Below are positions 1 through 42,300 of a DNA stretch of 64,000 bases, piece by piece. The stretch comes from a virus: positions 1 through 64,000 of IMG/VR virus record IMGVR_UViG_3300040801_000976. One strand, given 5' to 3'. The notes under the pieces were generated by a model. It worked only from the letters and a program-made list of their open reading frames with translations. It had not been told where the DNA came from and searched no databases. Position 1 is the stretch's first letter, and each line of letters opens with the position of its first letter. The position numbers and the translations under genes are program-made.

Positions 1-63
1 AACATCGGCTATAAAATCATTGCCGTTTTCGTGCTTATCTAAAGCTTCGTTCTCTTTACTCAT
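1..63 (-). CDS. Partial cassette ORF (MSKENEALDKHENGNDFIADV...), runs off the window
   Basis: ATG at 63 inside the first attC loop; frame is open to position 1 through the R'' core. Confidence 0.6.
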   Translation of the reverse strand, partial: MSKENEALDKHENGNDFIADV

Positions 64-123
64 TTTGTTTATATTTTAAAAGTTCAGCGTATTTAATCGG
101 CAACGCTTCATAGCCGTAGTACG

Positions 124-333
124 TTAGCCACCATTTAAAACAGGCTCTTTGCAAGCTCGGTGGTTTTCTAAAATACTAATCGCTTCATTTAGTTCTTCAA
201 TAGCATCTAAGTCAGCATCTACATCAGGACAAGGTACGTCAATTTTACAGTTTCTTTTTATGAAGCTGTTTTTAATAAATGTCTTTTCAGCTTTTTCTCG
301 CTGTTCTTTCAATTGTTGAATAATTCTTTCCAT
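124..333 (-). CDS. Small hypothetical cassette protein (MERIIQQL...)
   Basis: ORF track 124..366 with probable ATG at 333; stop TAA lies in the R' core. Confidence 0.7.
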   Translation of the reverse strand: MERIIQQLKEQREKAEKTFIKNSFIKRNCKIDVPCPDVDADLDAIEELNEAISILENHRACKEPVLNGG

Positions 334-568
334 AATAAAAACGGTGGCTAACAAAGTATATAGCACATAGCCTGTCAGCCGTTTTTAAAACTATGTGCGG
401 TTATTAAATTATTTTTTATCTACTTAGGTCTGTGAGTGGCTACGTGCCATATACAAACCGTTGTGCTTCATTAAAATGCCACTTCGTTAAGCACAACACG
501 CAATAAAAATAATTGGCTTGTGCATCGTGCGAACGAAGTGCGTAATTGAAGGAATAAAAACAAAATCA

Positions 569-1126
569 CTACGCACGGTACTCTTTGTTTAAATATTGCC
601 CATCTACGTGCGAACGTATATTATCGTGTACGTGTCCAGCTTCCCAAATTATATCTTCTTCCCTTCCGTTCACAAATCGCTCCAACACTTCTTGTTTAGT
701 GTAAAGCTCGGCTTTATGTATGTCGCTTGTATAGCCGTTTGAGTTTTTACCCCACCACAGTACGCTGTTGCCCACATAGCCGTTTTGAATGTAAAAGTTG
801 CTGTTGTCTGGGAATCGCTCCATCGCTTTCCTACGCTTATCTATTCTCTTTCGCTCTCGGTTCATCATTTCAACCTGCCAACGTTTCTTTTCACTACCTT
901 CAAACATCACCTTGTCCATGCCCGCAGTCCTTCGCACCTTTAAATCTGTGAACTTTGGCTCATCATCATAAAGCGTTCATTCAAACGGCTCTGTTACTAA
1001 CGATTTAGCCTCGCCTGGGCTATCTGCATAAGTAACTGGTATTTCATCAATTCTATAACCTTCGTGTGGGTTGTCGCTTAACATACCCTCGTGCCATATT
1101 CTAAATGCTTTTTTAATTAATTCCAT
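569..1126 (-). pseudogene. 185-codon hypothetical gene with a single in-frame TGA (977-979), located inside an attC loop
   Basis: ATG at 1126 (MELIKKAFRIWHEG...) is in frame with track ORF 569..937; the only interruption is EPFE*TLY. Confidence 0.7.
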
Positions 1127-1229
1127 CGCTATATTTTGTTTTTATTTGTTCTCATATCAAGGTTTCTGCAAACTCGGATGAGCCAACTATTCTTATTGCC
1201 ATCCGTTAGCAACAAGGCTACCTATCGCC

Positions 1230-1406
1230 TCATATATCAGCTTCTTTATGATTATACATTAATTGCATCACCCAAGCATCTTCAAACTCATACATTCCAC
1301 AAGTTGTACACGCTTCATCCATTGTGTCGTAATAATTTATCTTTCCGTTTTCGTCCTTCATAAAGTCCATATTCCGAAGGTCTATAATTACAAATTGTCC
1401 TTTCAT
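1230..1406 (-). CDS. 58-aa hypothetical cassette protein (MKGQFVIIDLRNMDFMKDENG...)
   Basis: Translated by hand; fills the cassette body 1205-1439; AT-rich leader. Confidence 0.7.
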   Translation of the reverse strand: MKGQFVIIDLRNMDFMKDENGKINYYDTMDEACTTCGMYEFEDAWVMQLMYNHKEADI

Positions 1407-1520
1407 AATTTATAGTTTTAAAACCGCCCGGTTGCTAACAATGTGTATAGCAAATAAGCCAGTTAAGTTTATATTTCAATTTATAGTTTTGTGGTGGCTT
1501 ACTTGCCATACACTCGTCCG

Positions 1521-1739
1521 TTAGCGGTAATGCTTAAAAACCGCTATCACGATCAACCACATGGGTACGACTAATATAAATCCTGCCAACAAATAACTTT
1601 TACTTTCTAATCCATATTCGCTACCTAAGTAAGCTAATGAAAGTACGCACGTTGCAAATAAATACACAAAAAGCACTACCGCTAACAAACGGTATAAAAA
1701 ATGCCTTTCTTTGTCTGTAATTTTAATATTTATTTTCAT
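1521..1739 (-). CDS. Small two-TM membrane protein (cassette)
   Basis: ORF track; two hydrophobic segments; starts in the attC loop and stops in the R' TAA. Confidence 0.7.
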   Translation of the reverse strand: MKINIKITDKERHFLYRLLAVVLFVYLFATCVLSLAYLGSEYGLESKSYLLAGFILVVPMWLIVIAVFKHYR

Positions 1740-1821
1740 ATCTAAAGTATTTATAATTTGATAATTAAGTCCATTTAATACGGCACATTTTCATACCGCA
1801 GTACGTTAGGCGTAATGCAAT

Positions 1822-2028
1822 TTAATCAGTACGCCTTTCAATATTTATAGTTCCTTCAAATGCTCTGGCGTTTGCAATCGTTTCGGCTTCTTCATAACTA
1901 TCGCAGTCAGCTTCCCATTGTCCATTTATATACACTTGGTAGTAAGCACTACGCCTAACACCGTGTAATAAATCATTACTTGGTAATGGTTCTAAATCTT
2001 CTACGTTAAAATCAAATAAGTCTGTCAT
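1822..2028 (-). CDS. Small hypothetical cassette protein
   Basis: ORF track; starts in the attC loop and reads through R''. Confidence 0.7.
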   Translation of the reverse strand: MTDLFDFNVEDLEPLPSNDLLHGVRRSAYYQVYINGQWEADCDSYEEAETIANARAFEGTINIERRTD

Positions 2029-2078
2029 TTTAATATTATTTTAAGTTATTAATACGCAATGCTTAATACACTATTTCG

Positions 2079-2315
2079 TTAGCAACAATTTGCCCCACAA
2101 TCGCACTCTTGTCCATCAGGGTCGCTTAATGTTCGAGGTTCGCATCTTCCTGTATTGCCACATTTGGGGCAAACAGATTTGCTAACAAACGGTATATTTA
2201 ATGCTTGTAGTATCTTTTCATAGTAATCTGTCAAATTACAGTCCTACATTTGTAAACCTTTGTCATAAACTTCAAACAATAGCTTTTCAATCAATTTTCG
2301 TTTTTGCTTTGCCAT
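2079..2315 (-). pseudogene. 78-codon Cys-rich (CPKC...CDC) cassette gene with in-frame TAG at 2244-2246
   Basis: MAKQKRKLIEKLLFEVYDKGLQM*DCNLTDYYEKILQALNIPFVSKSVCPKCG...NCC; ends at the TAA in R'. Confidence 0.65.
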
Positions 2316-2377
2316 TTCAAATTATATTTTGTGGTTAATAATCGCACTAAACATACCGCCAACCGTTAGCGTCCAGT

Positions 2378-2644
2378 TTACTCCCATTTGGTTTCCCCTG
2401 TTTTCTTGTGCTTATATTGTATTCCATGCGGTGCGGTTTGTATTATCTCCCAATCAGGGTCGTAAACCGTATCGCCAACATGTTGTATAGGTAATAATTT
2501 TAAAAATAGTTCCTCCAATTCGGTAGCAACGCTCGGTGCATCGGGTGCATCCATTCCATCGCAATCTTCTCTTGGTATAGTTTTTACTACTTTGTAAATT
2601 TGTTCCCATACCTCGCTTCTTTGTATTCTGTTACTTTGTTCCAT
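2378..2644 (-). CDS. Small hypothetical cassette protein
   Basis: ORF track; starts in the attC loop and reads through R'' (LPIQHVGD). Confidence 0.7.
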   Translation of the reverse strand: MEQSNRIQRSEVWEQIYKVVKTIPREDCDGMDAPDAPSVATELEELFLKLLPIQHVGDTVYDPDWEIIQTAPHGIQYKHKKTGETKWE

Positions 2645-2655
2645 TTTATTAAGTT

Positions 2656-2900
2656 TTATCTGTTAATTATTTTTAAAATTATATACCCATACAGTTGATG
2701 CTCTTCATACCAACTACTTTCTCTTCCAGTATCAGGAAATATTACAGTATAGCTTTTTGTATTGTCTCCTCCGTATTGGTCTGCATAGCTTCCAACAACG
2801 ATAACATCTTTGTCATTTTCAAAATATTTCATCGTTGAACCCAAATCTTTAGCTATATGTACTAAATTTCCTTTTTTAAATTTTTGTTTTTTTTTTTCAT
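2656..2900 (-). pseudogene. Hypothetical gene frameshifted in an A11 run after the ATG, with its 3' end joined to the cassette array
   Basis: ATG at 2900 followed by 11 A; 9 or 12 A would restore MKK..QKFKKGNLVHIAKDLGSTMKYF in frame with ORF 2656..2844. Confidence 0.55.
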
Positions 2901-3025: not shown

Positions 3026-3057
3026 TTTGGATATTTACAGGAAATGTAGTATATTTG
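3026..3057 (+). promoter_or_regulatory. Bacteroidota sigma-A type promoter for the homing endonuclease gene
   Basis: TTTG (3026-3029) - 20 bp - TATATTTG (3050-3057) fits the TTTG-N19-21-TAnnTTTG consensus; 27 bp before ATG 3085. Confidence 0.7.
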
Positions 3058-3084
3058 CAACTTATCCAAATAAATAATAACATT

Positions 3085-3504
3085 ATGAATATATCATATA
3101 TATCTGGATTTTTTGATGCTGATGGTTCTATAACTATGTGCCACAATTTAAAGAATGACAAATTTAAGACTATTAAAATAGATTTTACTAATATAGAATT
3201 AGAATTACTTAAATCCATACAATCTTATTTATTTGTAGAACATAATCTTAAGTTGTTTATATCTACAAAACCATCTAAAAGATCAGCACATTCTATTTCA
3301 TATAGTCTATCTTTATCAAGTAATCAAAAATGTATTACTTTATGTAAATTATTAAAGTCTAATCATCCAAAAAAATTACATAGAATAAATACTATAATTA
3401 AGTATCATGATAAAGTTACTAATAGAAATGGAAAATATACTGAACAACAAATTACGAGAAAGTTAGCTTATGAAAGGCTATTTTCCTCCACTAATTTTCA
3501 TTAG
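3085..3504 (+). CDS. Single-motif LAGLIDADG homing endonuclease, antisense within the intron
   Basis: N-terminal YISGFFDADGSI motif; 139 aa. Confidence 0.9.
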   Translation: MNISYISGFFDADGSITMCHNLKNDKFKTIKIDFTNIELELLKSIQSYLFVEHNLKLFISTKPSKRSAHSISYSLSLSSNQKCITLCKLLKSNHPKKLHRINTIIKYHDKVTNRNGKYTEQQITRKLAYERLFSSTNFH

Positions 3505-4581
3505 TGATCGGACTATATTATCATCCGTTCTGGATGTCACTCGCTATGGACTTACCGTAGTATTCCTAGTCTCTGAACCTGCTTACTTCTTCCAGTAAGA
3601 TTGGCTGCTGATTGGCATAGATTTTTTCTTTAGCTTCCCAGCAATTCAAGTGATTTTTTCATTGTATATTCCTATACAAGCGACCCTTATTTAAGTCGAA
3701 CCCGAGTCCAAACAATTTCCAACCCATTATAAAACAACCATTCTTTAGTGGGTTTTTCGGGGTTTCTACACAAATAGAGATAAACCCTTGTCTCGTATTA
3801 TTTGTTTTGCAGCTCTCCTTAGAATGGTTGTAAAATAATCAAGGCTATGCCACCTTTAAATGTACATAATTACTACGACAATGCAGGAATCGAACCTACC
3901 TTACAGACCTTCTCTATGCCGTACCTTGATTAAAACTAAACAATCTATTCCAAAACTAACTATAACACCTATTCTCTCAACTAAATGAGCTTAATCTATC
4001 ACCAAGTTCTTATGTTTATGGTATAGGCTTTAGGATACTTTCAATAATTAGAACTCTTGTAGATTCATTAGAGTTTTTTTAAAACATGCTTTTGAAGAAA
4101 TATTCGGCATTCTGATGATTCTCATACAATAGTTAATATACCATATGTAATTCCTCAATTTATTCTTCAGCCAGTGATATTATCCAGCATATTTTCCGTT
4201 AGCTATAAAACTCTTGTTAGAGTACAACGATTGACTAACATGATCATTGTTTAAAATAAAAGATAATCTGACTTAACAGCATTTACCAGATTGTACGCTT
4301 CAGACATAGTGAATTATCAACTATGCTTGTAGTATCTTTTATTTATTTTAATTGAGTTGACAGCGCATACCTAATAATTATAGCATCGCAACCGTTTAGG
4401 ATGAGTATGTGCAATATGGCTCAATGTTAGTAATTAATAGTAATAAGTATTGGATAGACCACTTAACCCAACTTTTAACGTCCTTTTATGAACTTGTACT
4501 TCTTACCATTAAATTACCCTTGTAGGATATTTCCTACTGCGTTAATATTTAAGCTATCGCTGACGTGGTTTGATTTCACGT

Positions 4582-5068: not shown

Positions 5069-5165
5069 ATACCTGACTACTAAGTTTCTTTTACTATAGA
5101 TACACTTCATCGTGTAGAGCTACAAATCTTAGTAGTTTCGTCTATTAAAGACTCATCAGAGGTAT
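5069..5165 (-). ncRNA. Type I hammerhead ribozyme
   Basis: AUACCU-CUGAUGA-GUCU(uuaau)AGAC-GAAA-CUACUAAG...CUUAGUAG-UC^AGGUAU; complete core and three stems. Confidence 0.92.
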
Positions 5166-5689
5166 TTTAAAATAACCAACACCAATAGCTAATTGGAATG
5201 ATATTTATTGTCACCTGACACGCTGGCTTTACAACTCACAGATTGTAGCCCTAAGAGCTAGAACATATCATCAATCTTCTAAATTACAGTAGCTAACTGT
5301 TTGAGTAATTCTAAGTACTTTTTACATTGTGCAACAACTTAGATTCTATTTCAATAATTACTCTATTTATTTGATTTGTTGGTTATTTATACTTTAAAAA
5401 CAAAGCTACTTTGAGAAATATTAATTGCTTCTACTTCCCTTTATTACCAAATATGGTCTACATTGATTCTCTTACTCCATAGCTTTTAAAGTAGTCATTC
5501 TTTATGGTTCAATCAGCAATAAAGGCAGGTTACAAGCCTGATAATTCACAATTAATATCAACCAACATTTTCTCTCAACTCTCCAGTTGATTTATGATAG
5601 TTATAATGCAATAACCGCTTAGAAATAAATTTCCGCGCTCTTATTATTTGAAAACTTGATTAGTAGCTTTGTTGTTATTTATTTTTATA

Positions 5690-16683: not shown

Positions 16684-18927
16684 ATGACTGATGTAAAACT
16701 GAATAAGGAAAATGTAGATAATATTATTGATTTATGGTTACCGGATAAAGAATTATGTGCAGAACAACAAGAATTTCGCGCAAAAAACGAGTGGCGTAGG
16801 GATAAGTATAGTGGTATTATCAAACCTTCTGAGTTGGGTATCGAGAAGTACCGCTACGGAGATATATTACACCCTAACTTTTACTCGGGTAGAACTCCGC
16901 CTCAAGTTCCGATGGACTCGGTGGAGAATCTAGAGTGGTACGAAGAACAGTTAAAAAGATGTGTTTATGGTTATGAATATGGTAACCAAAGAATTACTGG
17001 AGATCATTATTGGTTTCTGAACTTCACACCCTTTTTAATAGCATTAAAAGATAAAAACGGTAACCCAACAACAAACTTTGACACAGATTTTCCGTATTTC
17101 TCGTACCAACACGATTATATATTCAAACTTATTGAAGAAGCACATAGTACATCAAAAGCTATAATGCTTATGGGCGGTCGTGGTTTTGGTAAGACTTATA
17201 TGATGCTAAGTATTTCTGCTAAAGCATATTACCTAAAACCAGAAAGCCACAATGTTATATCTGGAACTAATTCGGGTCACGCGGGAGAAGCTTTCTCGAA
17301 GATGAGAGATATGTTAAGGGCTATAGACTCGGCTCATCCTACACTAGCACTATCCCGGCTAATTAACACAAAATATTTCATTAAGTCAGGTTACGAAGTA
17401 ACGAGAGATGGTGTAAAGAAGGAGGAAGGTCCTATGTCTAAGTTACAGTGCGTTATATATGGTGATAATCCAGGTGTTACGCGTGGATCCAGACCAGATA
17501 CCTTTTTGATGGAGGAGATAGGTGACTGGGCTTCTGGTAAGGCTAATCTTAAAGCTTGTATAAATGCTTCCGAGGGTTCTTGGAAGGTAGGATCAATCTT
17601 TAAGACAAGGTTGATGATGATTGGTACGGGTGGTTCTGTATCTACGGACCAAGCTAAAGATTTATTTACTAATCCGGATGCTTATGATATTCTAGCGGTT
17701 AAAGATTTCCCCACAGGTAAAATGCATAAGCACGCTGTGTTTATTCCCTCAGACTATCTATTAGGAGGTATGGGCTGGGAACGCACAGGCGTGAACAACA
17801 ACGAAGAGGCTAGAAAATTCCTCAATAACCGACGGGAGTTGGCTAAAGAGGATATGGAATTATTAGATAGTAGAACGCGCGAGTGGCCTTTCACAATAGA
17901 AGAAGTTTTTAAGAGAACGGGAACTAATATATTCAATCAGCGTAAGATATCGAAACAATGGGTTGATATAGAATTAGGTGCTGATCACGTGGTTAAACCA
18001 GAACGTGGTATGCTAGAATGGGTTCGATCTAAAGGAGGTTCTATAGTAGATGTAAAGTGGTCTAAAAACCCTAACGGAAACATAGAAATAGTAGAACATC
18101 CTTTTCGAGGTGAGAAAGGTGATAGACTATTTAATAAATTATATGTGATAGGAGTTGATAGTATTGATCAAGGTCAGTTAGACAGTACATCTTTAAAAAA
18201 CAGATCATCATTAGCAGCTTTAGTCAAGAAAAGAATCGCGGACGGTGGTTATTTCACGCAGACCTCGAATTTATACGTTGCGAAGTTTCTCGGTAGAAGT
18301 TTAGATGTTAGGGATGACTATGAAGAGGTGTTAAAACTTTCTATGTACTATAATGGTCAGATAAACCTTGAATACACAAAGATTGGTTTGGTACACTACT
18401 TTAGAGAGAAGAAGCAGTGGCACCGTTTCATGAAACGACCGCAGGTAGCAATGCCTTCCGCAGATGACGGTTCATTACGAAGATTAGGTGTTCTTAAAAA
18501 CGATACATTAATAGGAACAACTACATCGCCTGGAGTTATTGACCATCAGGATGGTAAAATCAAAGAGTATATTAACGAATACTGTCATCAGATATTTTTT
18601 CGTGACGTATTGGAACAACTTAGGGATTATCAAAGAGAAGATCGTAGAAAATATGACCTTGTTGTAGCTATGGGTCTTTGTGAGATAGCTGATGAAGATT
18701 TACTTGGGGAACCTGCAAAGGATGAGAGAACCGAGACGGAAAATTTTAAACAGTTTGGTTACTATAAAGATGAATATGGTCGGACTCAGTTTGGTGTATT
18801 ACCTGCCAGTAAAACATTAGACGACGAAATACGTATGGAGAATAAAATGGATTTTTCGTGGGTAGATTCGACAGGCACTCCTCGATTCGATAAAAAATAT
18901 GATGTGCTAGATGCACGCGATTTATAA
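16684..18927 (+). CDS. terL: Terminase large subunit
   Basis: Walker A GGRGFGKT, Walker B FLMEEIG, coupling motif IGTGG, nuclease YVIGVDSID, YDLVVAMG. Confidence 0.95.
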   Translation: MTDVKLNKENVDNIIDLWLPDKELCAEQQEFRAKNEWRRDKYSGIIKPSELGIEKYRYGDILHPNFYSGRTPPQVPMDSVENLEWYEEQLKRCVYGYEYGNQRITGDHYWFLNFTPFLIALKDKNGNPTTNFDTDFPYFSYQHDYIFKLIEEAHSTSKAIMLMGGRGFGKTYMMLSISAKAYYLKPESHNVISGTNSGHAGEAFSKMRDMLRAIDSAHPTLALSRLINTKYFIKSGYEVTRDGVKKEEGPMSKLQCVIYGDNPGVTRGSRPDTFLMEEIGDWASGKANLKACINASEGSWKVGSIFKTRLMMIGTGGSVSTDQAKDLFTNPDAYDILAVKDFPTGKMHKHAVFIPSDYLLGGMGWERTGVNNNEEARKFLNNRRELAKEDMELLDSRTREWPFTIEEVFKRTGTNIFNQRKISKQWVDIELGADHVVKPERGMLEWVRSKGGSIVDVKWSKNPNGNIEIVEHPFRGEKGDRLFNKLYVIGVDSIDQGQLDSTSLKNRSSLAALVKKRIADGGYFTQTSNLYVAKFLGRSLDVRDDYEEVLKLSMYYNGQINLEYTKIGLVHYFREKKQWHRFMKRPQVAMPSADDGSLRRLGVLKNDTLIGTTTSPGVIDHQDGKIKEYINEYCHQIFFRDVLEQLRDYQREDRRKYDLVVAMGLCEIADEDLLGEPAKDERTETENFKQFGYYKDEYGRTQFGVLPASKTLDDEIRMENKMDFSWVDSTGTPRFDKKYDVLDARDL

Positions 18928-22162: not shown

Positions 22163-22212
22163 AGTTTACGAGAAATATTATTTAAAATATATACATTAAA
22201 GATCATTTGCAA

Positions 22213-24498
22213 ATGACAAGACCATCACTATCATCTTATCCCACTGCTTATTATGAAGACGTTCATTTAAGCGAAAAAGATAAGTCATCTAAAGAATACC
22301 TACAGGCGAGCATGAACCACTGGGTATCTTCTCTGGTGCACGATAAGAGTTATATGAAAACTTATCGAGATTACTATAATGGTGTTAGGAATAATAAAGA
22401 TTTTGAGTACCTAACAGATAATTATGGTATAGGTACACCTACTGCTCTAAAGTTTACTAATATAATTAAACCTCGCGTCGACTCTCTGGTGTCACAAATA
22501 ACAGACGATAATTTTACTTACACTGTTTCGTGTACCGACGATAAGACATTGGATTTAATACAGGAAGAGAAGAAAAATAAGAAATTAAAAGAGATAAACG
22601 AGGCTCTAGATTCGTTTTCTAACTCCATATTAAGTAGTAAGAAATCTATAACACAATCGGATTACCGTTCAAATCTAGCACGTATAACTAAAAAATACGA
22701 AACTAACTACTTATCTGATTTTGAAGTAGCTGCCCAAAAAGTATGCTCTTACTTCGAGAGAAGTAATGAATTAGGTATAAGGCAAAAACTAATTACCCTA
22801 GCTACTGACCTTATAGTGGTTGGCGAATGTTATTGGCGCGTTTATTTTACTAAATACGGCTCCGACCCAAAGTTAGAGATAATAAAACCAGAGAACTTTT
22901 TCCACAACAAAAGTACTAACACACCTTTCCTGGATACAACCGATGCGGTAGTTAGGAGAGAATACCTGACACACAAAGAAGTAGTTCGTAAGTTTGGTAA
23001 GTTTTTATCTAAGGATGACCTCACGGAGATGTTTGGTGATCGTTACATGACTATGTCATCACGTAATTTAAATTCCGGACTTGATTTAGAACTATATTAC
23101 GGTGAGGACAATCCACAATTACAAGACAGACACTACAGTACAGCCTACACCGTGGAAACTCTTCATATCGAATGGAAGGTTACTAATGAAAGCGATTTGG
23201 ATGATGAAGAACGAGCTAGTTACCAAACTATAGATAGTGGTTTTAACAACGAGCCTAAATCTACATCTAGAAGGGAAGACTTATACGAGGGAACACGTAT
23301 AGGCGGTAAATGGTTTGTAAATTGTGGTAAGGTAGAGAATACGCCAAGATCTTCCAACGACCCAGAAGCTGTGGAATTTACCTACGGAGGTATATGTAAT
23401 AACGACAGGGCGGGTAAACCATTTTCTATCGTTGGTTCATTAAAGGATATCCAAGATACCTACGACCTAATAATATTCTATAGAGATAACCTAGTAGCTA
23501 ACTCGGGTGTATCTGGCGATAGAATAAATTTGGCCGGTATACCTAAAGCTTTGGGAAACAATTTCATGGATAGACTATTCAAATTCATAGCACTTAAAAA
23601 GAATGGTGTAGAGTTGATAGATCCTACGGAGCCTGGAGCACAGTTATTTCAACACTACGGATCCTTTAATAATACTCTTGATGGAAGAGCAGTAGACTCC
23701 ATCGAATCACTACTTAGATTTATAGAACATCAGGCAGATATAGCAGCAGGCACTACCCAGCAAATGTTGGGACAGATTGCGGAGCGCGAAGCCATAGGTA
23801 ATGTCAAGATTGGATTACACCAGTCATTACTTATAAACCAAGTTCTATTTGGACTATTTAGATCGGCGCATACAAATGTCATGTCTAAGTTGTTAAAGAG
23901 CTCACAAGTATCGTACCAGGAGGGTAAAAAGATATCTTACGTGGCGGGTACAGAATCTTATGTATTCGGTATATTACCTGAAAAATTCTCGTATACGGAC
24001 TACGCGTTGTCAATAGGATATGCCTCGAAAGATACGCAAAAATTACTGGAATTAAAAGCACTTGCTAAAGAGCTTGTGTCGAACCAAATGGTTGATCCAG
24101 ATGTTATAACCAAAATAATGCTTTCCGATTCTATCACGGAGATACAGAGATTGATTACACAGAACTGGTTAGAGAAGAAAGAAGAGTCTATGGGATTATC
24201 TAAAGCCAACAGTATCATTGAACAGATGGAAGACCAGATCAAACAACTTGAAGGCGAATTAACCAATGCTAAACAGCAACTCGAGGCTTCTACAGGCGGT
24301 GATAAAGGACTCAAAATTAAAGAACTAGAGTTAAAACAGTTTGAGATAGAGAGAAAGCTTGAGATTGAAGGTAAGAAGGTTAAGGACGCTAATGATTACC
24401 AAGACAAGAAAATTGACTTGGATAAAGAACGTGTTCAACTAGAGAGAGAACAGTTATATTTGGGAACAGGTCCTGAACGCGAAGTAAGAAATTCTTAA
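22213..24498 (+). CDS. Portal protein
   Basis: About 760 aa; DFEYLTDNYGIGTP..LKFTNIIKPRVD.L N-terminus typical of crAss-like portals; C-terminal coiled coil. Confidence 0.9.
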   Translation: MTRPSLSSYPTAYYEDVHLSEKDKSSKEYLQASMNHWVSSLVHDKSYMKTYRDYYNGVRNNKDFEYLTDNYGIGTPTALKFTNIIKPRVDSLVSQITDDNFTYTVSCTDDKTLDLIQEEKKNKKLKEINEALDSFSNSILSSKKSITQSDYRSNLARITKKYETNYLSDFEVAAQKVCSYFERSNELGIRQKLITLATDLIVVGECYWRVYFTKYGSDPKLEIIKPENFFHNKSTNTPFLDTTDAVVRREYLTHKEVVRKFGKFLSKDDLTEMFGDRYMTMSSRNLNSGLDLELYYGEDNPQLQDRHYSTAYTVETLHIEWKVTNESDLDDEERASYQTIDSGFNNEPKSTSRREDLYEGTRIGGKWFVNCGKVENTPRSSNDPEAVEFTYGGICNNDRAGKPFSIVGSLKDIQDTYDLIIFYRDNLVANSGVSGDRINLAGIPKALGNNFMDRLFKFIALKKNGVELIDPTEPGAQLFQHYGSFNNTLDGRAVDSIESLLRFIEHQADIAAGTTQQMLGQIAEREAIGNVKIGLHQSLLINQVLFGLFRSAHTNVMSKLLKSSQVSYQEGKKISYVAGTESYVFGILPEKFSYTDYALSIGYASKDTQKLLELKALAKELVSNQMVDPDVITKIMLSDSITEIQRLITQNWLEKKEESMGLSKANSIIEQMEDQIKQLEGELTNAKQQLEASTGGDKGLKIKELELKQFEIERKLEIEGKKVKDANDYQDKKIDLDKERVQLEREQLYLGTGPEREVRNS

Positions 24499-29110: not shown

Positions 29111-32100
29111 ATGGCTATTACGAGTCCTCAGGGATATAATATTCAAGCTCAAGCACCTATAGATGATAGGTTTGTTAGAAACACCATAGCAGAGAGGAAT
29201 CTCTTATCCTTGGCGACAAGGTATGAGGGTTTAACAATGTACGTACTAGATGATGGTGCCGGTAAAGCCCGTAACTATCAGTTAGTAGGTGGTATAACTA
29301 ATGATGATTGGCAAGAACTACAGGGTGGTGGTGCAATAAGCGAAGACGCCGCCCGTACACAAGATATACTCATATTTGACGGTGAAGAGTATTCTCCTTT
29401 CGAGGCACCCGTTATGTATGAAGATGTTGACTTAACGGATCTAACTACCATTTGTTTGGGATTAAGCGTTACTGATTTTAACATCGACGCGTTTGTTGGT
29501 ATAAATAAAGAAACGGGATCCGCGTCTCTAGAAATAGGATCATCCGGTAGCTCCGATATGCTAGCCATTTATGCAGAAGGAGAGACAGTTCCATCCTTAA
29601 ACATCAGAAACGATAACACAATATATGGACTAAATAGTACTGGTGCGACTGCAAAAATATTTGACGATGCAAATTTATACGTCAGTAAGTGGTATGACCC
29701 AACAGGCAACTCTAGTATAGAACTAACTGACGGCGGGGGTATGCTTTCAAATATAAGTTCGATTAGTACCAACACACCAATAGATTTATCTATAGAACCA
29801 GTAGCTACGCAAGATGTAAGTATTATAACACTATCTTCTATAGCTAATGATGGTTTTGACGGATCTGTCACACCGCAGTCAGTTGTAAAATCATATCTAG
29901 ATTTAACAGCATTGTCTGGGAGCTCTCATGAGTTAGATATATTCAGATTATTCGAGGCGGATGTACTAGAGGGAGTAGGAGATCACGGAGAGTTACAGGC
30001 TTTTTACGCCAATAAAGGTTCCGTGGTTCTAGACGAAGGTACATTAATGCTGGGTGACCCAAGCGAACAAAGAAACAACTCTTATATATCTATACAAGAT
30101 AGCCAGGATATGGACTACTTCTGCTATATGAGAAGATCGGATGGCGGATCGGCTCTGATATTAGACTCTGAAGGACGGTCAAACTTTGGTAATCACATGG
30201 TAGTTTCCGGGGAAGTTCAGTCTAATTTCACCAGGACAAGTCTGGTTAATGGTTGTAGGAAAGATGCTCCTTTACCAGGAGAAGAGGGGTATTTTGCTTA
30301 TATTGGTTTAATTTCTCAAGTAACAAAAAGTGCTACTTGGAAGATAGAGTATGCTCTAAGTAATTCTACAACAATGGGTGCTTTTATTGTAAACGTGAGG
30401 CCGGGTCAAGAACCTAATGCGGTTAATGTACTATATCCTGGTACCACCGAATATGGTAAGATACCCGAATTATTCCTGGTGGATACCGTAGATCCAAGCG
30501 ATAAAGTTAGTATATATATTAGGACTAATTGGCCGTCCTCGTATATGTCCTACAACGTATCTATATACACAGATCTAGCTGGAGTTAGAGCTTACGTGAC
30601 AGATAGACCAGAGATGTATGCTGTACAAAATGTGGCTGCATTACCTGCCGGAACAGTTTATACTGCTATTACCTCCAGCGAGAGTTACTGGGATATGGAT
30701 GTAAATGGTAATATAACAAATAATAATTCAGGATATCTAAATCTGTCTGGTAATATTTATTTTGATGACTTATTATCTTTTATAGCAGACGGTGATACCG
30801 CTGAATTAACACATGTACCATCGGAAAATCTATCTCTTTACTGGGACACTAATGGAAACCTTGGTATTAATACCAACTCTATAGTTAGTGGAGAGAATGT
30901 GTCTATTGCTGGTGATGCTGGTATATCAAGTCTAGTAAGGGTGGGTACTAGTATTGCAGAAGCAGCTCAGGTACTTGCTTATGATTCAACTGAAAATAAA
31001 TACTTACCAAAACACTTATTTACGCAATCTTCTATTAGTCTACCTACAGGAACTGGTTCAATAGTAGGTTCTGTATTACAAGAAGAGTTGGAAGTTACTG
31101 ACTATTTTGAAGATGTTATAATTATAACAGGTCCGACATCAGCTACAGGGTATGATTCTGTTGAATGTTATATACCAAATAGCGTTTTACCAGGACATAA
31201 AACAACCTTATATTTAACAGCCAACAGTTCCGTTGTTCCTATATACGTTAAAGCTTTAGGTACAGGTGGTAAGATAAATGACTCTTCAAATGGTTTTAGA
31301 CTACCACTACGCAGTTTAGTTACATTCGTGTGCATGGGTAGTAATGAGTGGGTAGCAGAGATGAGTTCTGTGGCTTATGTTCCAGAAAATACTATCCTAA
31401 CCGGTGACTCCTTATTCTGGAATGATTCGGAAAGTAAGTATACACCACAAAAATCTTCCAAAAGTACTTTAATAGATTTAGCAGATAGTACCGAAACTGG
31501 TGTCAACAATACTACAGTACTAAGTAGTTCCGGCGTATTATTTGATATGCTCTCTATAGCAGATACAACAACACCTGGGGATTTCGCCAGCTTGGTAGTA
31601 CAACTACCAATCAGTCCTACAGATGGTTATAAAATATCTCTAAAGCTGAGTGGTGTGGTATCTGGTACACCGATAGTGATACAGGGAGGGACAGAATCTT
31701 TAGATGTTTCTGATATTACTATGGTGGAAGATTATATCTATGAGTTTGTATATTCTAGTACCGCTTCCTCGTGGATAGCCCAAATACCATACAGCACCGA
31801 CGCAGAATCTTTTCCATCTTCTACTGAAGGAAATGCTTTATTCTGGGATGTTGCAGAGAGTAAGTATACACCACAAACTGCGGTGGGTAGTTATGAACTA
31901 GAAACTCTTACTGCGTCCGGTGTAATTGAGACTGATATAAACAAAATAACACTGAGTCGAAGTAATATTTTATCAGACTTAGCTATAATAACAGATAATG
32001 TTAACTCTTCTGAATCAGGTTATAGTTCTTTTAACTTTAACTTACCATCGTCACCGATAGATGGGTACAAAATATCACTTAAGTTAGTATCTTCTACTTC

Positions 32101-35100
32101 GGAAAAACCTATATACATTAAGGGTGGGGATAATACCATCAATGAGTCCGAAGACATCATAATGGATACGTCATCTGTTTATGAGTTTACTTTTAGTGTT
32201 GATGCAGATACCTGGGTATATAATAAAACTAGTAGTTCCGCGTCAATTATAGAAGAGAAAAGTACTAGCTTTACTATAGGTTCAACTACTAAGTCAGGAA
32301 CTTTATTTGTTGTATCTAATGATGCTGACGTAACCCTGTCTAATCCAACTAATTTTCCTGACGGATTTAAGGTAAACATTTATAATTCAGACGGATCAGA
32401 TATAGATGTATTTCCATACGGATCAGATGTGATAAAACTATATGGTAAGTATGATTCGATAGAACTTACTAAGTTAGGCAGCACTTATATTATAAGCGGT
32501 ACGGGTTCACCCATAGATTCCGAGCACGTAATTTCTTACGGAAGTCCTTTATCAACCTGGGATTTTTCATTTAGTTCGGCAGCTGTTATTACTCTCACAG
32601 GTAATACAGAATTGAATCTAACAGGGGTGCAGGGCGGTGATACAGGTATTTTACGCGTGGTACAAGATTCCACGGGAGGTCATACACTAACCTTACCATC
32701 AAATAGCCAAACATATGGAATAGATAGTTTAGATATGTCGCCCGGATCCGTGGTTATATTATCTTTTTACTACGATGGAACAACATTAAACTGGACTGCT
32801 ACCTCAACAGGTTCTCTTAATTTTAATATAGAGGATTTGTTAAATGTAATAGTAACTGAGCCGCTAAACGGTGAAGTATTAACATTTAATGGCGTAAGCT
32901 GGGTTAATGCTGAACCAACAACAGGTGCAGTTGATTTTCTAAGTTTGTCTGATGTTACACCAACTACTTATACAGATAACGCGGGTAAACTTGTGGCTGT
33001 AAATTCTACACCCGATGCCTTGGAATTTGTAGATACCGTTGATTACACACTTGCAACAGGTACAGCAAACAACGATAAATTAGCTACACAAGGTTATGTG
33101 GATGATAATGTGAGTGCAGGATCACCATCATTTGGAAGTGATAATCAGATTCCATACATAAATTCATCTGGAGATGATTTTGACTATTCAAGTCAATTAA
33201 CATTTGATGGAACAAATTTAACAGTAAATGGTAATATTACTGGTGGTGCTTTTATTAAACCCGGGGGTCTTTCAACACAATTTTTAAAAGCAAACGGTAC
33301 GTTAGATTCTACTACATATCAAGATATAACTGAGAAAGGTGCAAGTAATGGTTATGCATCATTAGATTCAGCGGGTAAAGTCCCAATAACACAATTACCT
33401 TCATCTATTATGGAGTATAAAGGAGTTTGGGATGCAAGTACTAATACACCAACTTTAACAGACGGTGTAGGAAATACTGGTGATACATATAGAGTATCTG
33501 TTGCTGGAACACAAAATTTAGGTAGTGGAAATATATCATTTGAAGTTGGGGATTATGTTATTTATAATGGTACAGAATGGGAAAAGTCAGATACCACAGA
33601 TGCAGTCGCTTCAGTTAATGGTCAAACTGGTATAGTATCATTAGATTTAGCGGATATAGGCGAAAGCTATGCGAGCATTAATTATTGGACGTTGGGGAGT
33701 GGGCAGGTTAGCTATTTGGGCAACGTAGGTATAGGTACTGATTCGCCTACAAATACACTTGCTGTTCAAAGTAATATGGACTTTATGTATAACAATAGCA
33801 GGAGAATGACAGTAGGTTTTGATGGTTCTACTGGCTATGGGTTAATTGAAGGGCTTGATACATTAAATGGTGTTCGGATTGGAACTGACACAAATAATAA
33901 TATGTTTGTTGTTAAATTTGACGGCAATGTAGGTGTAGGCACTATTTTACCTTTAGTAAAATTTGAAGTCTTAGATAATACCGGATATGCAAAAACAATT
34001 TCAGATGGTGGGTGGAATGTAAAGAGGGATGTAGTAGGTAGTGGCAGCTCTATATTTTTATTATTAAACGGGAATGATGAATTAGCTCTTTCAGTAAGGG
34101 GAAATAAAGATTCTATTTTTTATGGCAACGTAGGCATTGGTAATGATTCACCTGCTTACAAATTAGATGTAAACGGTACTGGTAGGTTTACGGGTGACTT
34201 GCGTTCGGACGGTGTTATCCAATCGTCAGCTTATTTTAAAAGTGCAGGTACTACTGCTGTGGTTGGTACAAATGCCGATGGTGAAGTTAGATTAAGGCCA
34301 AGCGGTCATTTATCTACAATTGCCCAAAGTACATTTACAACCAGTTTAGCTACAATAGGAACTGATGCTTATTTTACTGGCAACGTAGGTATAGGTACTG
34401 ATACTCCCAGTGCTAAATTACATATCACAGGCGATATATTTTCAGATGTTATTAACGACGTGCAATTCAGAGGGCCTAACAATTGGTTTACAATAAGTAA
34501 CCAAAGTGGTTATAGTTACTTGTCTTGGTTTGGGTATTTCGATGGTACGAATTGGCGCGGTACACATCCTACTTTAGGTTCATCGAGAATACGTGGTGTA
34601 GGTGGTGATATTAGATTTTCAACAGCATCTAATAATGGTGATGAAGGAATATTAACGTATACTGATAAATTAGTCATTAACGAAAACGGTAACGTAGGTA
34701 TTGGTAATGATTCACCTGCTTACAAATTAGACGTAAACGGTACTGGGAGGTTTACTGATACTGTATTAGGCAAAACAGAAGCCCTATCAGACAATTCAAC
34801 GAAATTAGCTACCACAGCCTTTGTTAAAGGACAGGGGTACACTACACATGATGCAGTAACTGTAACAGATAGCAGTGAGATTGATTTTACTTTAACAGGT
34901 CAAAATATAACAGCTTCACTTAAACCAGGAAGTATTGATGAATCAAAGCTCGATATAAGTGTAAATGCAAGCTTAGATTTGGCTGATAGTGCAGTTCAGC
35001 CCGGAGATTTGGCTGACGTAGCAACAAGTGGTTCTTATGATGATTTAACAGATAAACCATTAAGTCAAACAAGTATAGCAAGTGCAACATCAATAACACC

Positions 35101-35377
35101 AACAGGTGGTTCAAGGGAAAATGAGCACTACGTAACCACATTGGCGGCTAATTTAACTATTAACGCACCAAGCGGAACAGCTGCAAATGGCAATAATTTA
35201 ATGATAAGAATACAAGATAACGGAACATCACGAACATTAACATGGAACGCTATTTATGAAGTTGTTGGAACTACATTACCAACAAGTACAACGGCAGGTA
35301 AAAAAATGTACATAGGCTGTATTTATAATTCAACGGATAGTAAGTGGGATGTTGTATCAGTAATCGAGGAGGTATAA
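29111..35377 (+). CDS. Large tail fibre protein (2088 aa)
   Basis: PIDDRFV..T..ER start, repeated GNVGIG modules, YKGVWDASTNTP module, GYASLDSAGKVP motif. Confidence 0.85.
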   Translation: MAITSPQGYNIQAQAPIDDRFVRNTIAERNLLSLATRYEGLTMYVLDDGAGKARNYQLVGGITNDDWQELQGGGAISEDAARTQDILIFDGEEYSPFEAPVMYEDVDLTDLTTICLGLSVTDFNIDAFVGINKETGSASLEIGSSGSSDMLAIYAEGETVPSLNIRNDNTIYGLNSTGATAKIFDDANLYVSKWYDPTGNSSIELTDGGGMLSNISSISTNTPIDLSIEPVATQDVSIITLSSIANDGFDGSVTPQSVVKSYLDLTALSGSSHELDIFRLFEADVLEGVGDHGELQAFYANKGSVVLDEGTLMLGDPSEQRNNSYISIQDSQDMDYFCYMRRSDGGSALILDSEGRSNFGNHMVVSGEVQSNFTRTSLVNGCRKDAPLPGEEGYFAYIGLISQVTKSATWKIEYALSNSTTMGAFIVNVRPGQEPNAVNVLYPGTTEYGKIPELFLVDTVDPSDKVSIYIRTNWPSSYMSYNVSIYTDLAGVRAYVTDRPEMYAVQNVAALPAGTVYTAITSSESYWDMDVNGNITNNNSGYLNLSGNIYFDDLLSFIADGDTAELTHVPSENLSLYWDTNGNLGINTNSIVSGENVSIAGDAGISSLVRVGTSIAEAAQVLAYDSTENKYLPKHLFTQSSISLPTGTGSIVGSVLQEELEVTDYFEDVIIITGPTSATGYDSVECYIPNSVLPGHKTTLYLTANSSVVPIYVKALGTGGKINDSSNGFRLPLRSLVTFVCMGSNEWVAEMSSVAYVPENTILTGDSLFWNDSESKYTPQKSSKSTLIDLADSTETGVNNTTVLSSSGVLFDMLSIADTTTPGDFASLVVQLPISPTDGYKISLKLSGVVSGTPIVIQGGTESLDVSDITMVEDYIYEFVYSSTASSWIAQIPYSTDAESFPSSTEGNALFWDVAESKYTPQTAVGSYELETLTASGVIETDINKITLSRSNILSDLAIITDNVNSSESGYSSFNFNLPSSPIDGYKISLKLVSSTSEKPIYIKGGDNTINESEDIIMDTSSVYEFTFSVDADTWVYNKTSSSASIIEEKSTSFTIGSTTKSGTLFVVSNDADVTLSNPTNFPDGFKVNIYNSDGSDIDVFPYGSDVIKLYGKYDSIELTKLGSTYIISGTGSPIDSEHVISYGSPLSTWDFSFSSAAVITLTGNTELNLTGVQGGDTGILRVVQDSTGGHTLTLPSNSQTYGIDSLDMSPGSVVILSFYYDGTTLNWTATSTGSLNFNIEDLLNVIVTEPLNGEVLTFNGVSWVNAEPTTGAVDFLSLSDVTPTTYTDNAGKLVAVNSTPDALEFVDTVDYTLATGTANNDKLATQGYVDDNVSAGSPSFGSDNQIPYINSSGDDFDYSSQLTFDGTNLTVNGNITGGAFIKPGGLSTQFLKANGTLDSTTYQDITEKGASNGYASLDSAGKVPITQLPSSIMEYKGVWDASTNTPTLTDGVGNTGDTYRVSVAGTQNLGSGNISFEVGDYVIYNGTEWEKSDTTDAVASVNGQTGIVSLDLADIGESYASINYWTLGSGQVSYLGNVGIGTDSPTNTLAVQSNMDFMYNNSRRMTVGFDGSTGYGLIEGLDTLNGVRIGTDTNNNMFVVKFDGNVGVGTILPLVKFEVLDNTGYAKTISDGGWNVKRDVVGSGSSIFLLLNGNDELALSVRGNKDSIFYGNVGIGNDSPAYKLDVNGTGRFTGDLRSDGVIQSSAYFKSAGTTAVVGTNADGEVRLRPSGHLSTIAQSTFTTSLATIGTDAYFTGNVGIGTDTPSAKLHITGDIFSDVINDVQFRGPNNWFTISNQSGYSYLSWFGYFDGTNWRGTHPTLGSSRIRGVGGDIRFSTASNNGDEGILTYTDKLVINENGNVGIGNDSPAYKLDVNGTGRFTDTVLGKTEALSDNSTKLATTAFVKGQGYTTHDAVTVTDSSEIDFTLTGQNITASLKPGSIDESKLDISVNASLDLADSAVQPGDLADVATSGSYDDLTDKPLSQTSIASATSITPTGGSRENEHYVTTLAANLTINAPSGTAANGNNLMIRIQDNGTSRTLTWNAIYEVVGTTLPTSTTAGKKMYIGCIYNSTDSKWDVVSVIEEV

Positions 35378-39309: not shown

Positions 39310-42300
39310 ATGAGATCTAGTAACAATAAAAAGTTTTTATTCAACTCACTTCCTGGTAAGAGAAGTTACGGAGGTATTATATTTTATACCACGCGTTATG
39401 GGGAGTTTAATCCGACAGCTGTAACTAATGACGGAACTTCTGTGACTTGGTCTGTTTCTGGCTATGAGCCCCAAACAACCAACACACCGTCCTTTACTCT
39501 AGGAGCTGGGTTAAAAACTGTAACTCTAATACCTAATACACCGGAAAGTCTTATAGAGTTAGATCTGTCTAATCAAGCTATTTTAAAGGGATTTAGTATA
39601 AGATCGGCTCCAAACCTAGAAAACCTATACTTAAATAATAATATCGATCTAACATCAGTATCTGTAAATATTCAGGGCGATGTAGGTGTGAAAGTATATC
39701 TGGCTAATTCCGGCATTCTTTCTTTTTATAATCTAGGTAATTTACGCGGTTTGGATATTAGTAATACACCTATAACATCGCTTTCTTCTTTGGTATCTGG
39801 TACCGAGGGTGCTTTTTTTAAGGCGCAAAATGTACAATCTATCACTAACGTAGATCTCAGTAATTATGTAGTAACGGAGTTGTTGAACCTTCAGGATAGT
39901 TCTATAGTTAATCTTACCGGCCTCTCTTTTATAGATGGTGATCCGGACTATCTCACTGAATTTCGATTGAAAAACTCGGTGCTTAGTACTACTTTACCAC
40001 CATTGAGTGTCACGCTTGCACTAGATCTAGAAAATACGGGTATTAAAGACGTTACCTTTCTTTATTTGGACACAGCTTCTACGTCAGGTCCATATAACAC
40101 TGATTACGTATCATTTAAGGATAATGATCTATCGTCAGCTGAAGTAAATACTATATTAAATAAGTTAACAACAGAAAACATAGAAAATGCCACTATAGAT
40201 GTAAGTGGTATTAATTCAGTACTTGATGGTGATGCGGGTGGATTAGATGGATGGGCATTGGTAAACTCTTTAGAAGCTAGAGGTAATACTGTGCTGTTTA
40301 ATTATAACGCAGCTTCTTTGTATTCGGGCACGACGGGTAATTTACGTATGACTGTTTATACCACTGATACCTCTGATGTACGAGTAAATATAAATGGTAC
40401 TTATGTCCAGACAATAAGCGGCGGTACAGTTTTATCTGTAGAAGAAGGTGATTTTATAGAGTTTATACCCGAACGATTAAACTACTTCACGGGCCTATAC
40501 CATAACGCTGGGTTAGATGCCGGAGCAATAAGAGGTACTTTAGATATATCGAATACCTACATAAATGAAGTAGTGTTACCAGAGCCTCTACCTAACTTAA
40601 ATAGTGTAAACTTATCTTCCCAATCAACACAGCAGTTAATATTTACCTCAGATCTCGGTGCTATGTATAACATTAGTGCGGATACTGCGGGAAGAGTATC
40701 AGCTATTATGACGATATCCAACGCATCTAGATTAAATAATATTGATTTTGGTGAAGTACCAACTCAAATAGATTTTTTAAATATACCCAACCTACAGTCC
40801 ATTACAAACCTACATCTTTTTAATAGTTTGGTAATGACCGACGTACCTTTATCTGCCGGACTAACTGTTACATCAGGAACAGACATTGATTTCTCAATCA
40901 ACAATAGTTTGTTATCTTCCCTTGATTTATCTGATGTAACGCTAAATTCTCTAGAGTTAAGTGATAATTTATCATTAAGTACTTTAGTTGTACCAAGCGG
41001 TACCTATAACGTTGACATAGATAACTGTGAGGCTCTAGTATCAGCGGATTTTTCCGGTGTACAAGTAGTCTCCTTATTTAGGTTCACGGATGGTACTGCT
41101 CCTAGTCTAACATTACCATCAGTAATCGCAGATGCTTCGGAAATTCATTTAGAGAATAACTCTTTTAGCCCTGCTGCTGTAAATAATTATCTGCAACAAC
41201 TAGATGCAACTGGTATATCAAGCGGAACCATTTACTTAAATGGTACTAACGATGTAGCAGATACTGTATCCGGTGGTATAGATGGTATACTGTATAAAGA
41301 AAATTTGGAATCTAGAGGTAATACTGTTTATTGTGATGTAGCACCAGAGACTCTTAGTTTTACAACTGTAAAGAACGGAGAGGTATTATTAGATATTACA
41401 CCGTCTGTATCATGGTCAACGGATAAGGGTCATAGCGGCGTTGGTAATCCTTCGTTCACAAACGATGGTACTGCAACCGTTATTACATTAAATGTAGTCG
41501 ACTTAGAGGATATATTGAGTCTTCAATTCGCGAATCAAGGATTGGTTGGTAGTGTTGACCTTTCTGGTCTTACTAACCTGAGCGTTTTGGATTTATCGGG
41601 TAACGCAATAACTTCGGTTCTAAACCTGGAAACTACGTCGCTAGAGTCGTTGACGTTAGATAATACATCAATAATCTCACTAGATTTATCGTCTTGTTCT
41701 AATTCGGTAGAACCTGTTACACTAATAAGTTTGGTAGATATTCCTAGTCTAACCTCCCTGCAACTATTTTCGGGTGCCGTACAGGAGGTACAGGATTTAT
41801 CAATACAAGATACAGGTATTAATTCCATAGACTTATCATTTGTAGATATAGTTTTACGAGTATCAATTACTGGCGGAAGTGTAACATCTATAACGGAGTT
41901 GACCGCGTCTGCTATGATTGAATCGTGCGAAGTAGATTCTACGTCTATTACCTCGTTGAACCTAAATGGTTTAACATCTGATTATATAAAGATAACCAAT
42001 AATGACACTTTGTCGAGTGTGACGGGATTTCCTTCAGGTGTAAGGATGATAGATGGTTTGGATATCTACAATAACAATTTAACGTCTGTTCTTGATTTAA
42101 ACAATGTACAGATCTCAGACCATGTAGATTTCAGCAACAACACGTTATTGACCGGTATAACAAATCTAAGAGGTTATTTGACAACCAGTCCTATATCTAT
42201 AAACGGAGATAATTGTTCGTCATTAACCACACTTAACTTAGTAGATGTCACGTTAACAGGTACATTATCGTTACAAAATACGACCTCACTAACTACTTTA

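Follow-up and report, generated by a model that had tools for sequence, protein, structure and literature searches.

Positions 1-2700 of the DNA analysed here (the window, which is the first 64 kb of IMGVR_UViG_3300040801_000976, a linear viral record of 128,786 bp) hold small minus-strand open reading frames (ORFs) that alternate with eight imperfect hairpins resembling the attC sites of integrons, and in five of the hairpins a reading frame starts within the loop. We think it probable, at roughly 60%, that this is an integron-like array of hairpin-bounded cassettes in which Xer-like recombination, acting in two registers, reassorts the N- and C-terminal parts of small proteins in frame at a valine codon. 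Such arrays are common in phages of marine Bacteroidota. Many IMG/VR contigs carry them, with up to 13 hairpins each, and elements of the same kind surround small genes and methyltransferases in phages phi17:1 and P12002L.

Read on the strand of the ORFs, each joint consists of a sequence ending in YTAAC, a bulge of 3-6 nucleotides, a stem of about 18 bp rich in G.T wobbles, a loop, the return arm and a sequence beginning GTTRR, and is followed by a ‘body’ bracketed by its own inverted ends of 7-21 nucleotides; those that extend the core measure 21, 14, 14 and 14 nucleotides. On the plus strand the order is a GCTAAC-like core, arm, loop, arm and a GTTAGC-like core. Cores of the attC type were found at all eight hairpins, with GCTAAC, CCTAAC and CCAAC paired with GTTAGC, GTTAGG and GTTGA, and the hairpins span 92, 120, 128, 129, 130, 190, 223 and 718 bp (Table 1). 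Since the strand that folds also carries the ORFs, these cross its 3′ core, which an initial annotation of this DNA had called R'' on the plus strand. In a set of 106 non-redundant elements, drawn from the window and 27 related loci (labelled L below) by a scan that scores G.T and A.C pairs alike, the spacers are mostly 4-6 nucleotides after the 5′ core and 0-3 nucleotides before the 3′ core. The remark in the initial annotation that several sites lack obvious extrahelical bases was only partly right, given the 3-5 nucleotide bulge beside the 5′ core on the sense strand and the single bulged A of element 1-128.

Four of the five frames previously described as running from a loop across R'' are uninterrupted, namely minus-strand ORFs 1521..1739, 1822..2028 and 2378..2644 and an open frame from the ATG at 63 to the contig start (hereafter ORFs 1739, 2028, 2644 and 63, after their start positions). 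The fifth, from the ATG at 2315, holds a TAG, and the intact ORF there starts from a TTG at 2234. The peptides said to encode the site (DFIADV, LYRLLAV, LLHGVRRS, LNIPFVSKS and LPIQHVGD) are all found in the translations, and four of the five frames do cross the core alike, with GTT read as valine, the exception being ORF 1739 (TTG TTA GCG). The loop is coding space, supplying the start codon and the first 17-55 codons in five of the eight hairpins. Three of the four bodies of loop-start ORFs lack any ATG and the body of ORF 1739 has one only 14 codons before the stop, so the start must come from the loop; two other bodies (124-333 and 1230-1406) have a start of their own. The stop codon TAA is the TTA of the next core in three ORFs (those beginning at 124, 1521 and 2079). 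This layout recurs among the 106 elements, 50 of which (36 of 86 sequence clusters) have an ORF that starts in the loop, extends across the 3′ core and is 40 aa or longer; 16 of these 50 end at the TAA supplied by the next core. Counted by cluster (n = 36), the crossing is in the GTT = Val frame in 24 cases, in frame 1 in eight and in frame 2 in four; since frame 1 is closed by TAG or TAA wherever the core reads GTTAG or GTTAA, the fair comparison is 24 against 4. Gene gp8 of phi17:1, a cultured phage of 38.8 kb, has the same layout. In L003 (616-740 onward), a 363-aa DNA methyltransferase-like ORF begins within a hairpin loop and reads across the core in frame 1, so the layout extends beyond tiny proteins.

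The initial annotation had predicted that one N-half would be found joined to different C-halves exactly at the valine codon, and this is what we observed for three of the four ORF families searched. For ORF 2644, 91 database matches (query included) comprised 82 to the N-half and 11 to the C-half, only two proteins matching both; the shared half was 64-96% identical. The joint residue after the N-half was valine in 73 of the 82, and the 77 tails of at least 12 residues fell into 36 clusters. Conversely, the 11 proteins with the C-half have nine different heads, eight of which end in valine. A search with phi17:1 gp8 reached 23 viral loci, and the 21-residue N-part of ORF 63 was found to head 14 different bodies (18 non-duplicate records, in our own grouping), each beginning right after GAT GTT AGC. 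The eight relatives of ORF 2028 vary in several ways: four keep arms and body and differ in the loop-encoded 13-residue N-terminus, two have another head joined at valine, one carries the window head plus VRRSA on an unrelated tail, and one shares the last 26 residues only. Thus the rule under which homologues always keep both halves together fails for ORFs 63, 2028 and 2644 and holds for ORF 1739. The proposal of an in-frame generator of small proteins stands to the extent that halves reassort at valine in these three families; crossover at the core as the cause is something that we infer. Scans of viral contigs returned no relative of ORF 1739, and none for C-half alignment A3.

The joints can also be followed at the DNA level. 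Window positions 1-126 are 90.6% identical to positions 2624-2749 of Cellulophaga phage phi17:1, and the match ends at 126, inside the GTTAGC core; positions 1499-1531 match Polaribacter phages P12002L and P12002S at 97% identity. With L004, the stretch in common is exactly hairpin module F (about 91-93% identity), beginning at the 5′ arm and ending at GTT(A)GGC between unrelated flanks, and a contig from another metagenome study (X6) covers the same module as piece 2477-2693 with loose ends on both sides. L032 offers the complementary case, with the C-half of ORF 2644 behind another head, ahead of another downstream hairpin and with covaried body ends: the body is the same and both neighbours are different. 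In L003, homology to the window stops at the AAC core, and the arms of hairpin D are conserved around a different loop-encoded N-terminus. Module Z is present in 19 records, with a median identity of 0.86 inside the module, 0.52 upstream and 0.57 downstream (171 and 153 pairs), the flank values lying at the level expected for unrelated AT-rich DNA under global alignment, an estimate made without a control run. L020 has a homologue of module A with 90.8% identity across its full length, and contigs of X4 and X6, two further metagenome studies that share single modules with the window, cover module A alone. Core hexamers carry eight of the 18 loose ends listed out of 90 (at 128, 349, 1207, 1435, 1522, 2180, 2477 and 2693). 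Sets X1 and X2 perhaps come from the sample that yielded the window. In L007 and L008 the body of phi17:1 gp8 is present too, there as an ordinary gene with no hairpins. At the level of sequence, these comparisons show that hairpin modules and bodies are inherited separately and meet at the two cores, and it follows from this independent assortment that the small proteins are chimeras of an N-part and a C-part fused in frame at valine.

Smaller pieces also appear to be exchanged. In other metagenomes, joints from 374 to 438 and from 1455 to 1501 skip the loop alone and keep the arms, and loops appear replaceable between conserved arms at window 373-437 and 1456-1500 and at L003 399-440. A 30-nucleotide A-rich stretch upstream of an ATG (around 2645-2675) is 93-97% identical in otherwise different modules (L004, L018 and L020), as if this start region were a sub-module of its own.

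The strand that encodes the ORFs is also the strand that folds. With RNA parameters it folded better than the opposite strand in all seven elements compared, and its z scores against shuffled sequences were -3.75, -3.45, -8.26, -2.58 and -0.78 for modules Z, A, B, C and D. With DNA parameters the corresponding values were -2.29, -1.55, -4.32, +0.05 and +0.45 for the sense strand and -0.98, -0.33, -3.40, +0.08 and -0.12 for the other strand. Over the 106 elements the sense strand contains 263 G.T against 98 A.C pairs; G.T pairs outnumber A.C pairs in 88 elements, the reverse holds in nine and the two are equal in nine. The consensus stem of module Z has 18 pairs, three of them conserved G.U. 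A search of Rfam gave no match to the hairpins at E<=1.

A candidate enzyme is found beside related arrays. Three of ten related viral records checked have a tyrosine recombinase of 267-270 aa directly downstream of the array, and a fourth has a different, 217-aa match about 5 kb away. The array-linked protein is closest to archaeal XerA (171-177 bits) and aligns with the XerA structure 4a8e over residues 20-264. Among bacterial genomes there are 374 relatives of this recombinase, mostly in Bacteroidota and also in a Desulfitobacterium and Clostridium, among others. In 80 of the 374 bacterial loci we found 100 hairpins scoring at least 33, where a one-strand shuffle gave two; at least three hairpins stand beside the recombinase in 14 of these 80. 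Of the bodies in these bacterial arrays, 25 have their ORFs on the strand opposite the fold and four, all in one locus, on the folding strand itself, with eight ambiguous. Bacterial arrays are thus mostly antisense to the fold, and the phage arrays are the inverted form. In the window, the contig ends on the side where related arrays have their recombinase.

For the mechanism, as for the function of the chimeras, we infer the following scheme. A Xer-like tyrosine recombinase of the kind found beside related arrays would recombine the folded hairpins as IntI does attC. Excision could proceed in either of two registers: via the 5′ cores a hairpin would travel with the body behind it, and via the 3′ cores a body would travel with the hairpin after it. 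Whichever register was used, a long stem would form again in the excised circle from the inverted ends that the body carries. If both registers were used over time, N- and C-parts would be reassorted, and the shared convention of reading GTT as valine would keep the products open. More tentatively, and with less confidence than we attach to the array itself, Bacteroidota phages might run a recombinase-driven system akin to exon shuffling, in which hairpins serve as N-terminal exons, the fixed in-frame core (GTT = Val) allows every hairpin module to be coupled to every body module, and two-register exchange yields combinatorial small early proteins, many with zinc-ribbon-like tails and plausibly acting in host takeover or counter-defence.

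Several observations weigh against an integron-like, two-register array. No circular or excised form was seen. The 128.8-kb record contains no tyrosine recombinase of any family (no match to TIGR02249 or PF00589), the record being 80% complete with the array running off its start. The recombinase linked to related arrays falls below the NCBIfam cut-offs both for XerA (171-177 bits against 220) and for integron integrases (148-158 bits, in two stretches, against 265), and it aligns to IntI4 (2a3v) only over residues 19-180. DNA parameters leave two of the five hairpins tested (1680-1811 and 1954-2084) no better than shuffled sequences, and thermodynamics by themselves are insufficient to carry the case. 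The 14 relatives of ORF 1739 are all collinear, with no exchange of unrelated halves; in this family the first 23 and last 7 residues (arm, core and body ends) are almost invariant and the middle has about five variants, a pattern that fits a nucleic-acid constraint on the ends. Several different tails of ORF 2644 share their first 6-8 residues, and P0100, a relative of ORF 2028, keeps the five residues VRRSA after the head, so some joints fall a few codons beyond GTT, which is the outcome expected of homologous recombination within shared arms. Finally, ‘protein module’ overstates the nature of the module Z N-part. Loop codons 2-13 show no sign of constraint at the peptide level, with differences per site of 0.336, 0.26 and 0.347 at positions 1, 2 and 3, and arm codons 14-21 are frozen even at third positions (0, 0.014 and 0.086). 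The N-part of ORF 63 therefore behaves as a leader and not as a domain, its conserved peptide being a by-product of the stem. Module F presents another picture, in which dozens of proteins retain the 44 loop-encoded residues, with replacements of a conservative kind; the comparison of the window with L004 gives four synonymous and six non-synonymous differences in 55 codons, too few for a decision. The AlphaFold2 model of ORF 2644 is of low confidence overall (mean predicted local distance difference test score (pLDDT) 65.7, predicted template modelling score 0.32), and its segment pattern alone is used here: predicted helices at 9-21 and 39-50 (pLDDT 50-69), a linker at 54-58 (pLDDT < 50), and then a three-stranded sheet (pLDDT 79-87).

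The most serious competitor, though one we regard as rather unlikely, is a cassette system with a single register and a shared leader. The hairpin would always travel with the ORF behind it, in mirror image of the bacterial cassette; hairpin types would be conserved repeats comparable to the uniform attC sites found in a chromosomal integron, having the start codon in such a repeat would yield the common N-part as a by-product, and new N/C pairs would come from cassette birth or from homologous recombination in shared arms, with no diversity generator at work. The collinearity of the ORF 1739 family and the leader-like behaviour of module Z, whose arm codons are frozen at synonymous sites, both agree with this, as do two shared body families (window/L003 and L009/L017) that keep the upstream hairpin and lose the downstream one. 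The bacterial bias of 25 to 4 (eight ambiguous) would likewise make the phage layout a simple inversion, with hairpin plus ORF the expected unit. Against it stand the 36 tail clusters of one N-half and the nine head clusters of one C-half, at 64-96% identity of the shared half, which imply frequent re-pairing, and the L032 body and the L004 hairpin, each of which moved without either neighbour; moreover, the first junction of an unrelated hairpin and body is beyond the reach of homologous recombination.

The hairpins might instead act mainly in mRNA, by holding the A-rich start region in an open loop or through stability or processing, with the module borders arising from recombination between conserved RNA elements and with no dedicated DNA recombination site; the stem-loop motifs of T4-type phages discussed below would be the closest parallel. 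The folded strand is indeed the transcribed sense strand with G.U mismatches, start codons lie in the loops of 50 of the 106 elements, and folds computed with RNA parameters far exceed shuffles for four of five elements, those with DNA parameters being weak. We nevertheless consider an RNA role improbable as the main explanation, since it requires no fixed AAC/GTT cores, no inverted ends on the bodies, no joints exactly at core positions and no linked tyrosine recombinase of the kind seen in phages and bacteria; in addition, bacterial arrays fold the strand antisense to their genes, and the exact Bacteroidota -7 box was found in none of 50 loops. Least credible of all, to the point that we give it hardly any weight, is the notion that the frames starting in loops arose by chance and that the true genes have other starts. 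The ORFs are admittedly short (51-88 aa) and lack a Pfam or PHROG function, and one has an in-frame TAG; yet dozens of independent contigs keep the N-halves open, an ATG is absent from three of the four bodies and comes late in the other, and the crossing frames are biased 24/8/4.

Transcription signals in the loops were considered separately. The exact motif TAnnTTTG was found in none of the 50 regions upstream of loop starts (shuffle mean 1.3), and a relaxed -7 motif in 16 of the 50 (shuffle mean 6.5), an enrichment due mostly to module Z. With no exact box and a relaxed enrichment that comes through one module, no promoter is claimed. Hairpin promoters used by a virion RNA polymerase have a precedent in phage N4; we dropped this candidate on finding the same elements in the 38.8-kb phi17:1 and in P12002L. 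The portion of the phi14:2 preprint consulted reports no common motif upstream of early transcripts.

How, then, does the array compare with known systems? It resembles an integron, or a cluster of attC sites lacking an integron integrase (CALIN), in its short cassettes, in its imperfect hairpins closed by RYYYAAC/GTTRRRY with one strand folding better, and in the tyrosine recombinase found beside related arrays. Classical attC sites carry extrahelical bases, and they are about 57-141 bp long with a variable, non-coding loop. The stems here use G.T wobbles and a 3-6 nucleotide bulge, the spans are 92-718 bp, and the loops, of 35 to about 650 nucleotides, hold start codons, N-terminal parts or whole genes (frame starts in five, a whole gene in one). 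The gene polarity is also reversed: a classical cassette has its ORF on the top strand, attC downstream and a bottom strand that folds, whereas the genes of the window are on the folded strand and the hairpin precedes the gene. The bodies differ further in carrying inverted ends of 7-21 nucleotides, with joints at both cores, and the linked recombinase is Xer-like and below the IntI model cut-off. Neither an IntI-type integrase nor the classical polarity was found in the phage arrays. The array works like an integron or CALIN, yet it fails on integrase type, gene polarity and a short non-coding site. Eight hairpins in 2.7 kb in a record devoid of a tyrosine recombinase might point to a CALIN, but the sites come from a custom scan and the contig is incomplete exactly where related arrays carry the recombinase. 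In a 2023 survey of 10,705 phage genomes, 17 integrase-less attC clusters, three complete integrons and one integrase without cassettes are reported (PMC9892861). Polaribacter phage P12002L is among the phages listed with a CALIN (PMC9892861), and it shares a 34-nucleotide arm and core with the window. Recombination dependent on IntI1 was reported for five of the six phage sites tested; P12002L_attC2 was recombined on the bottom strand only and attC1 was inactive (PMC9892861). The P12002L site that resembles window 1499-1531 may or may not be attC2. The main text of that paper, the part consulted, makes no mention of Cellulophaga, crAss-like phages or reading frames inside attC loops.

Our full-text literature searches found no description of such Bacteroidota-phage arrays, of N-termini encoded in loops or of protein halves reassorting in frame at attC cores. 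In class 1 integrons, ORF-11 at attI1 and cases of N-terminal fusion are familiar. Fused cassettes and translation through attI1 resemble the present layout in that a frame crosses an integron site and the N-terminus is encoded by the platform (PMC4670013, PMC8876359). Those cases are rare accidents or confined to attI, whereas here the arrangement holds for 50 of 106 hairpins and in a preferred frame. The promoter early stem-loops (PeSLs) of T4-type phages offer a second likeness, being repeated stem-loops that flank small non-essential genes and mark the borders of swapped modules (PMC2839356, PMC4122927). A PeSL combines an early promoter and a terminator-like stem-loop in a single motif, whereas the elements described here overlap coding sequence and gave no exact promoter box (0 of 50). 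To our knowledge, PeSLs are intergenic, have not been described as coding and have no recombinase linked to them. In shufflons and invertible tail-fibre segments (Rci, Gin/Cin), a constant N-part is joined to alternative C-parts by inversion within one genome. The arrays share with them a constant N-part and alternative C-parts at a site inside the gene, and differ in that the alternatives lie between genomes, both halves vary and the window has no inverted spare segments. Within the parts of this literature that we drew on, the published work that comes nearest concerns fused cassettes, attI translation and, in T4-type phages, PeSL motifs.

The features of the array are collected in Table 1. 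Element calls come from custom scoring scripts; global alignment of the arms proved noisy. At the strict score (34), matches occurred at three places only in the whole record, all between 1435 and 2698, and there were none in two shuffles, so the array is confined to the left end of the contig; at a loose score, five array elements stand amid a background similar to shuffles.

Table 1. Features of the array at window positions 1-2700; z scores are for the sense strand against shuffled sequences.
Feature	Position	Strand	Details
Hairpin module Z	1..128	-	Far core cut by contig start; plus-strand GTTAGC at 123-128
Module Z loop			ATG 63 and first 21 codons (MSKENEALDKHENGNDFIADV)
Body	123..352	-	14-nt inverted ends 123-136 / 339-352
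ORF	124..333	-	Starts inside body; stop TAA is TTA of core
Hairpin module A	347..466	-	Loop without ORF start; RNA z -3.45
Empty body	460..499	unassigned	9-nt inverted ends around ~20 nt
Oversized hairpin module	493..1210	-	Arms ~500-519 and 1176-1200
Frame	569..1126	-	Whole 186-codon frame inside oversized loop; in-frame TGA 974-976
Body	1205..1439	-	14-nt inverted ends; ORF 1230..1406 starts inside body
Hairpin module B	1434..1525	-	19-bp stem 1443-1461 / 1495-1513; loop without ORF
ORF	1521..1739	-	72 aa; start in hairpin C loop; core crossed as TTG TTA GCG
Body of ORF 1521..1739			21-nt inverted ends 1515-1535 / 1671-1691
Stop of ORF 1521..1739			TAA is TTA of core at 1520-1525
Hairpin module C	1681..1810	-	RNA z -2.58, DNA z +0.05
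ORF	1822..2028	-	68 aa; start in hairpin D loop; core crossed as GGT GTT AGG
Body of ORF 1822..2028			14-nt inverted ends 1805-1818 / 1946-1959
Hairpin module D	1955..2083	-	Weakest fold; RNA z -0.78, DNA z +0.45
Frame from ATG 2315	2079..2315	-	In-frame TAG 2244-2246; core crossed as TTT GTT AGC
Uninterrupted ORF	2079..2234	-	TTG start, still in loop; 51 aa
Stop of frame 2079..2315			TAA in core at 2078-2083
Hairpin module E	2181..2370	-	From fold and record scan
ORF	2378..2644	-	88 aa; hairpin F (loop and 3′ arm) encodes residues 1-55, GTT gives Val 56, body encodes residues 57-88
Hairpin module F	2475..2697	-	First in array by direction of transcription

Completeness of the record was estimated by CheckV, and the array touches its start. 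The very first letters of the contig are the AAC of a core, and many related arrays likewise lie at contig ends, which suggests that assemblies break at repeated or variable joints. At its head (2697 onward) the array adjoins ORF 2656..2844. Searches of Pfam and PHROGs with nine small ORFs gave no function, only a sub-threshold Sdh_cyt match and one PHROG of unknown function. Two array frames have a single in-frame stop (TGA 974-976 in 569..1126 and TAG 2244-2246 in 2079..2315) and may be decaying cassettes; recoding seems unlikely, as the long late genes are open under table 11. Three very long plus-strand ORFs lie in the late region (29111-35377, 39310-44256 and 58122-63782, of 2088, 1648 and 1886 aa), and the record encodes a large terminase (16684-18927) and a portal protein (22207-24498). 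A group I intron (Rfam RF00028, 90.5 bits) is found on the minus strand at 3489-3703, its end overlapped on the opposite strand by a 149-aa endonuclease-like ORF (3055-3504, plus strand; phrog_5046, phrog_4645). A match to a type III hammerhead at 5130-5185 (minus strand) is weak (23.2 bits against a gathering score of 48.5, E 0.36).

In conclusion, integron sites are treated as non-coding punctuation between promoterless genes, and here the site encodes the start and the front part of a protein, while in natural sequences front parts have changed partners with back parts at a single codon. For annotation, software for genes or attC sites that allows no overlap will overlook either the genes or the sites. 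If the re-pairing is indeed driven by a recombinase, these arrays would be an analogue in prokaryotic viruses of exon shuffling and a new route to diversify small early phage proteins, and the integron concept would broaden to cover a recombinase that lacks the domain specific to IntI, the genomes of phages and genes of inverted polarity.

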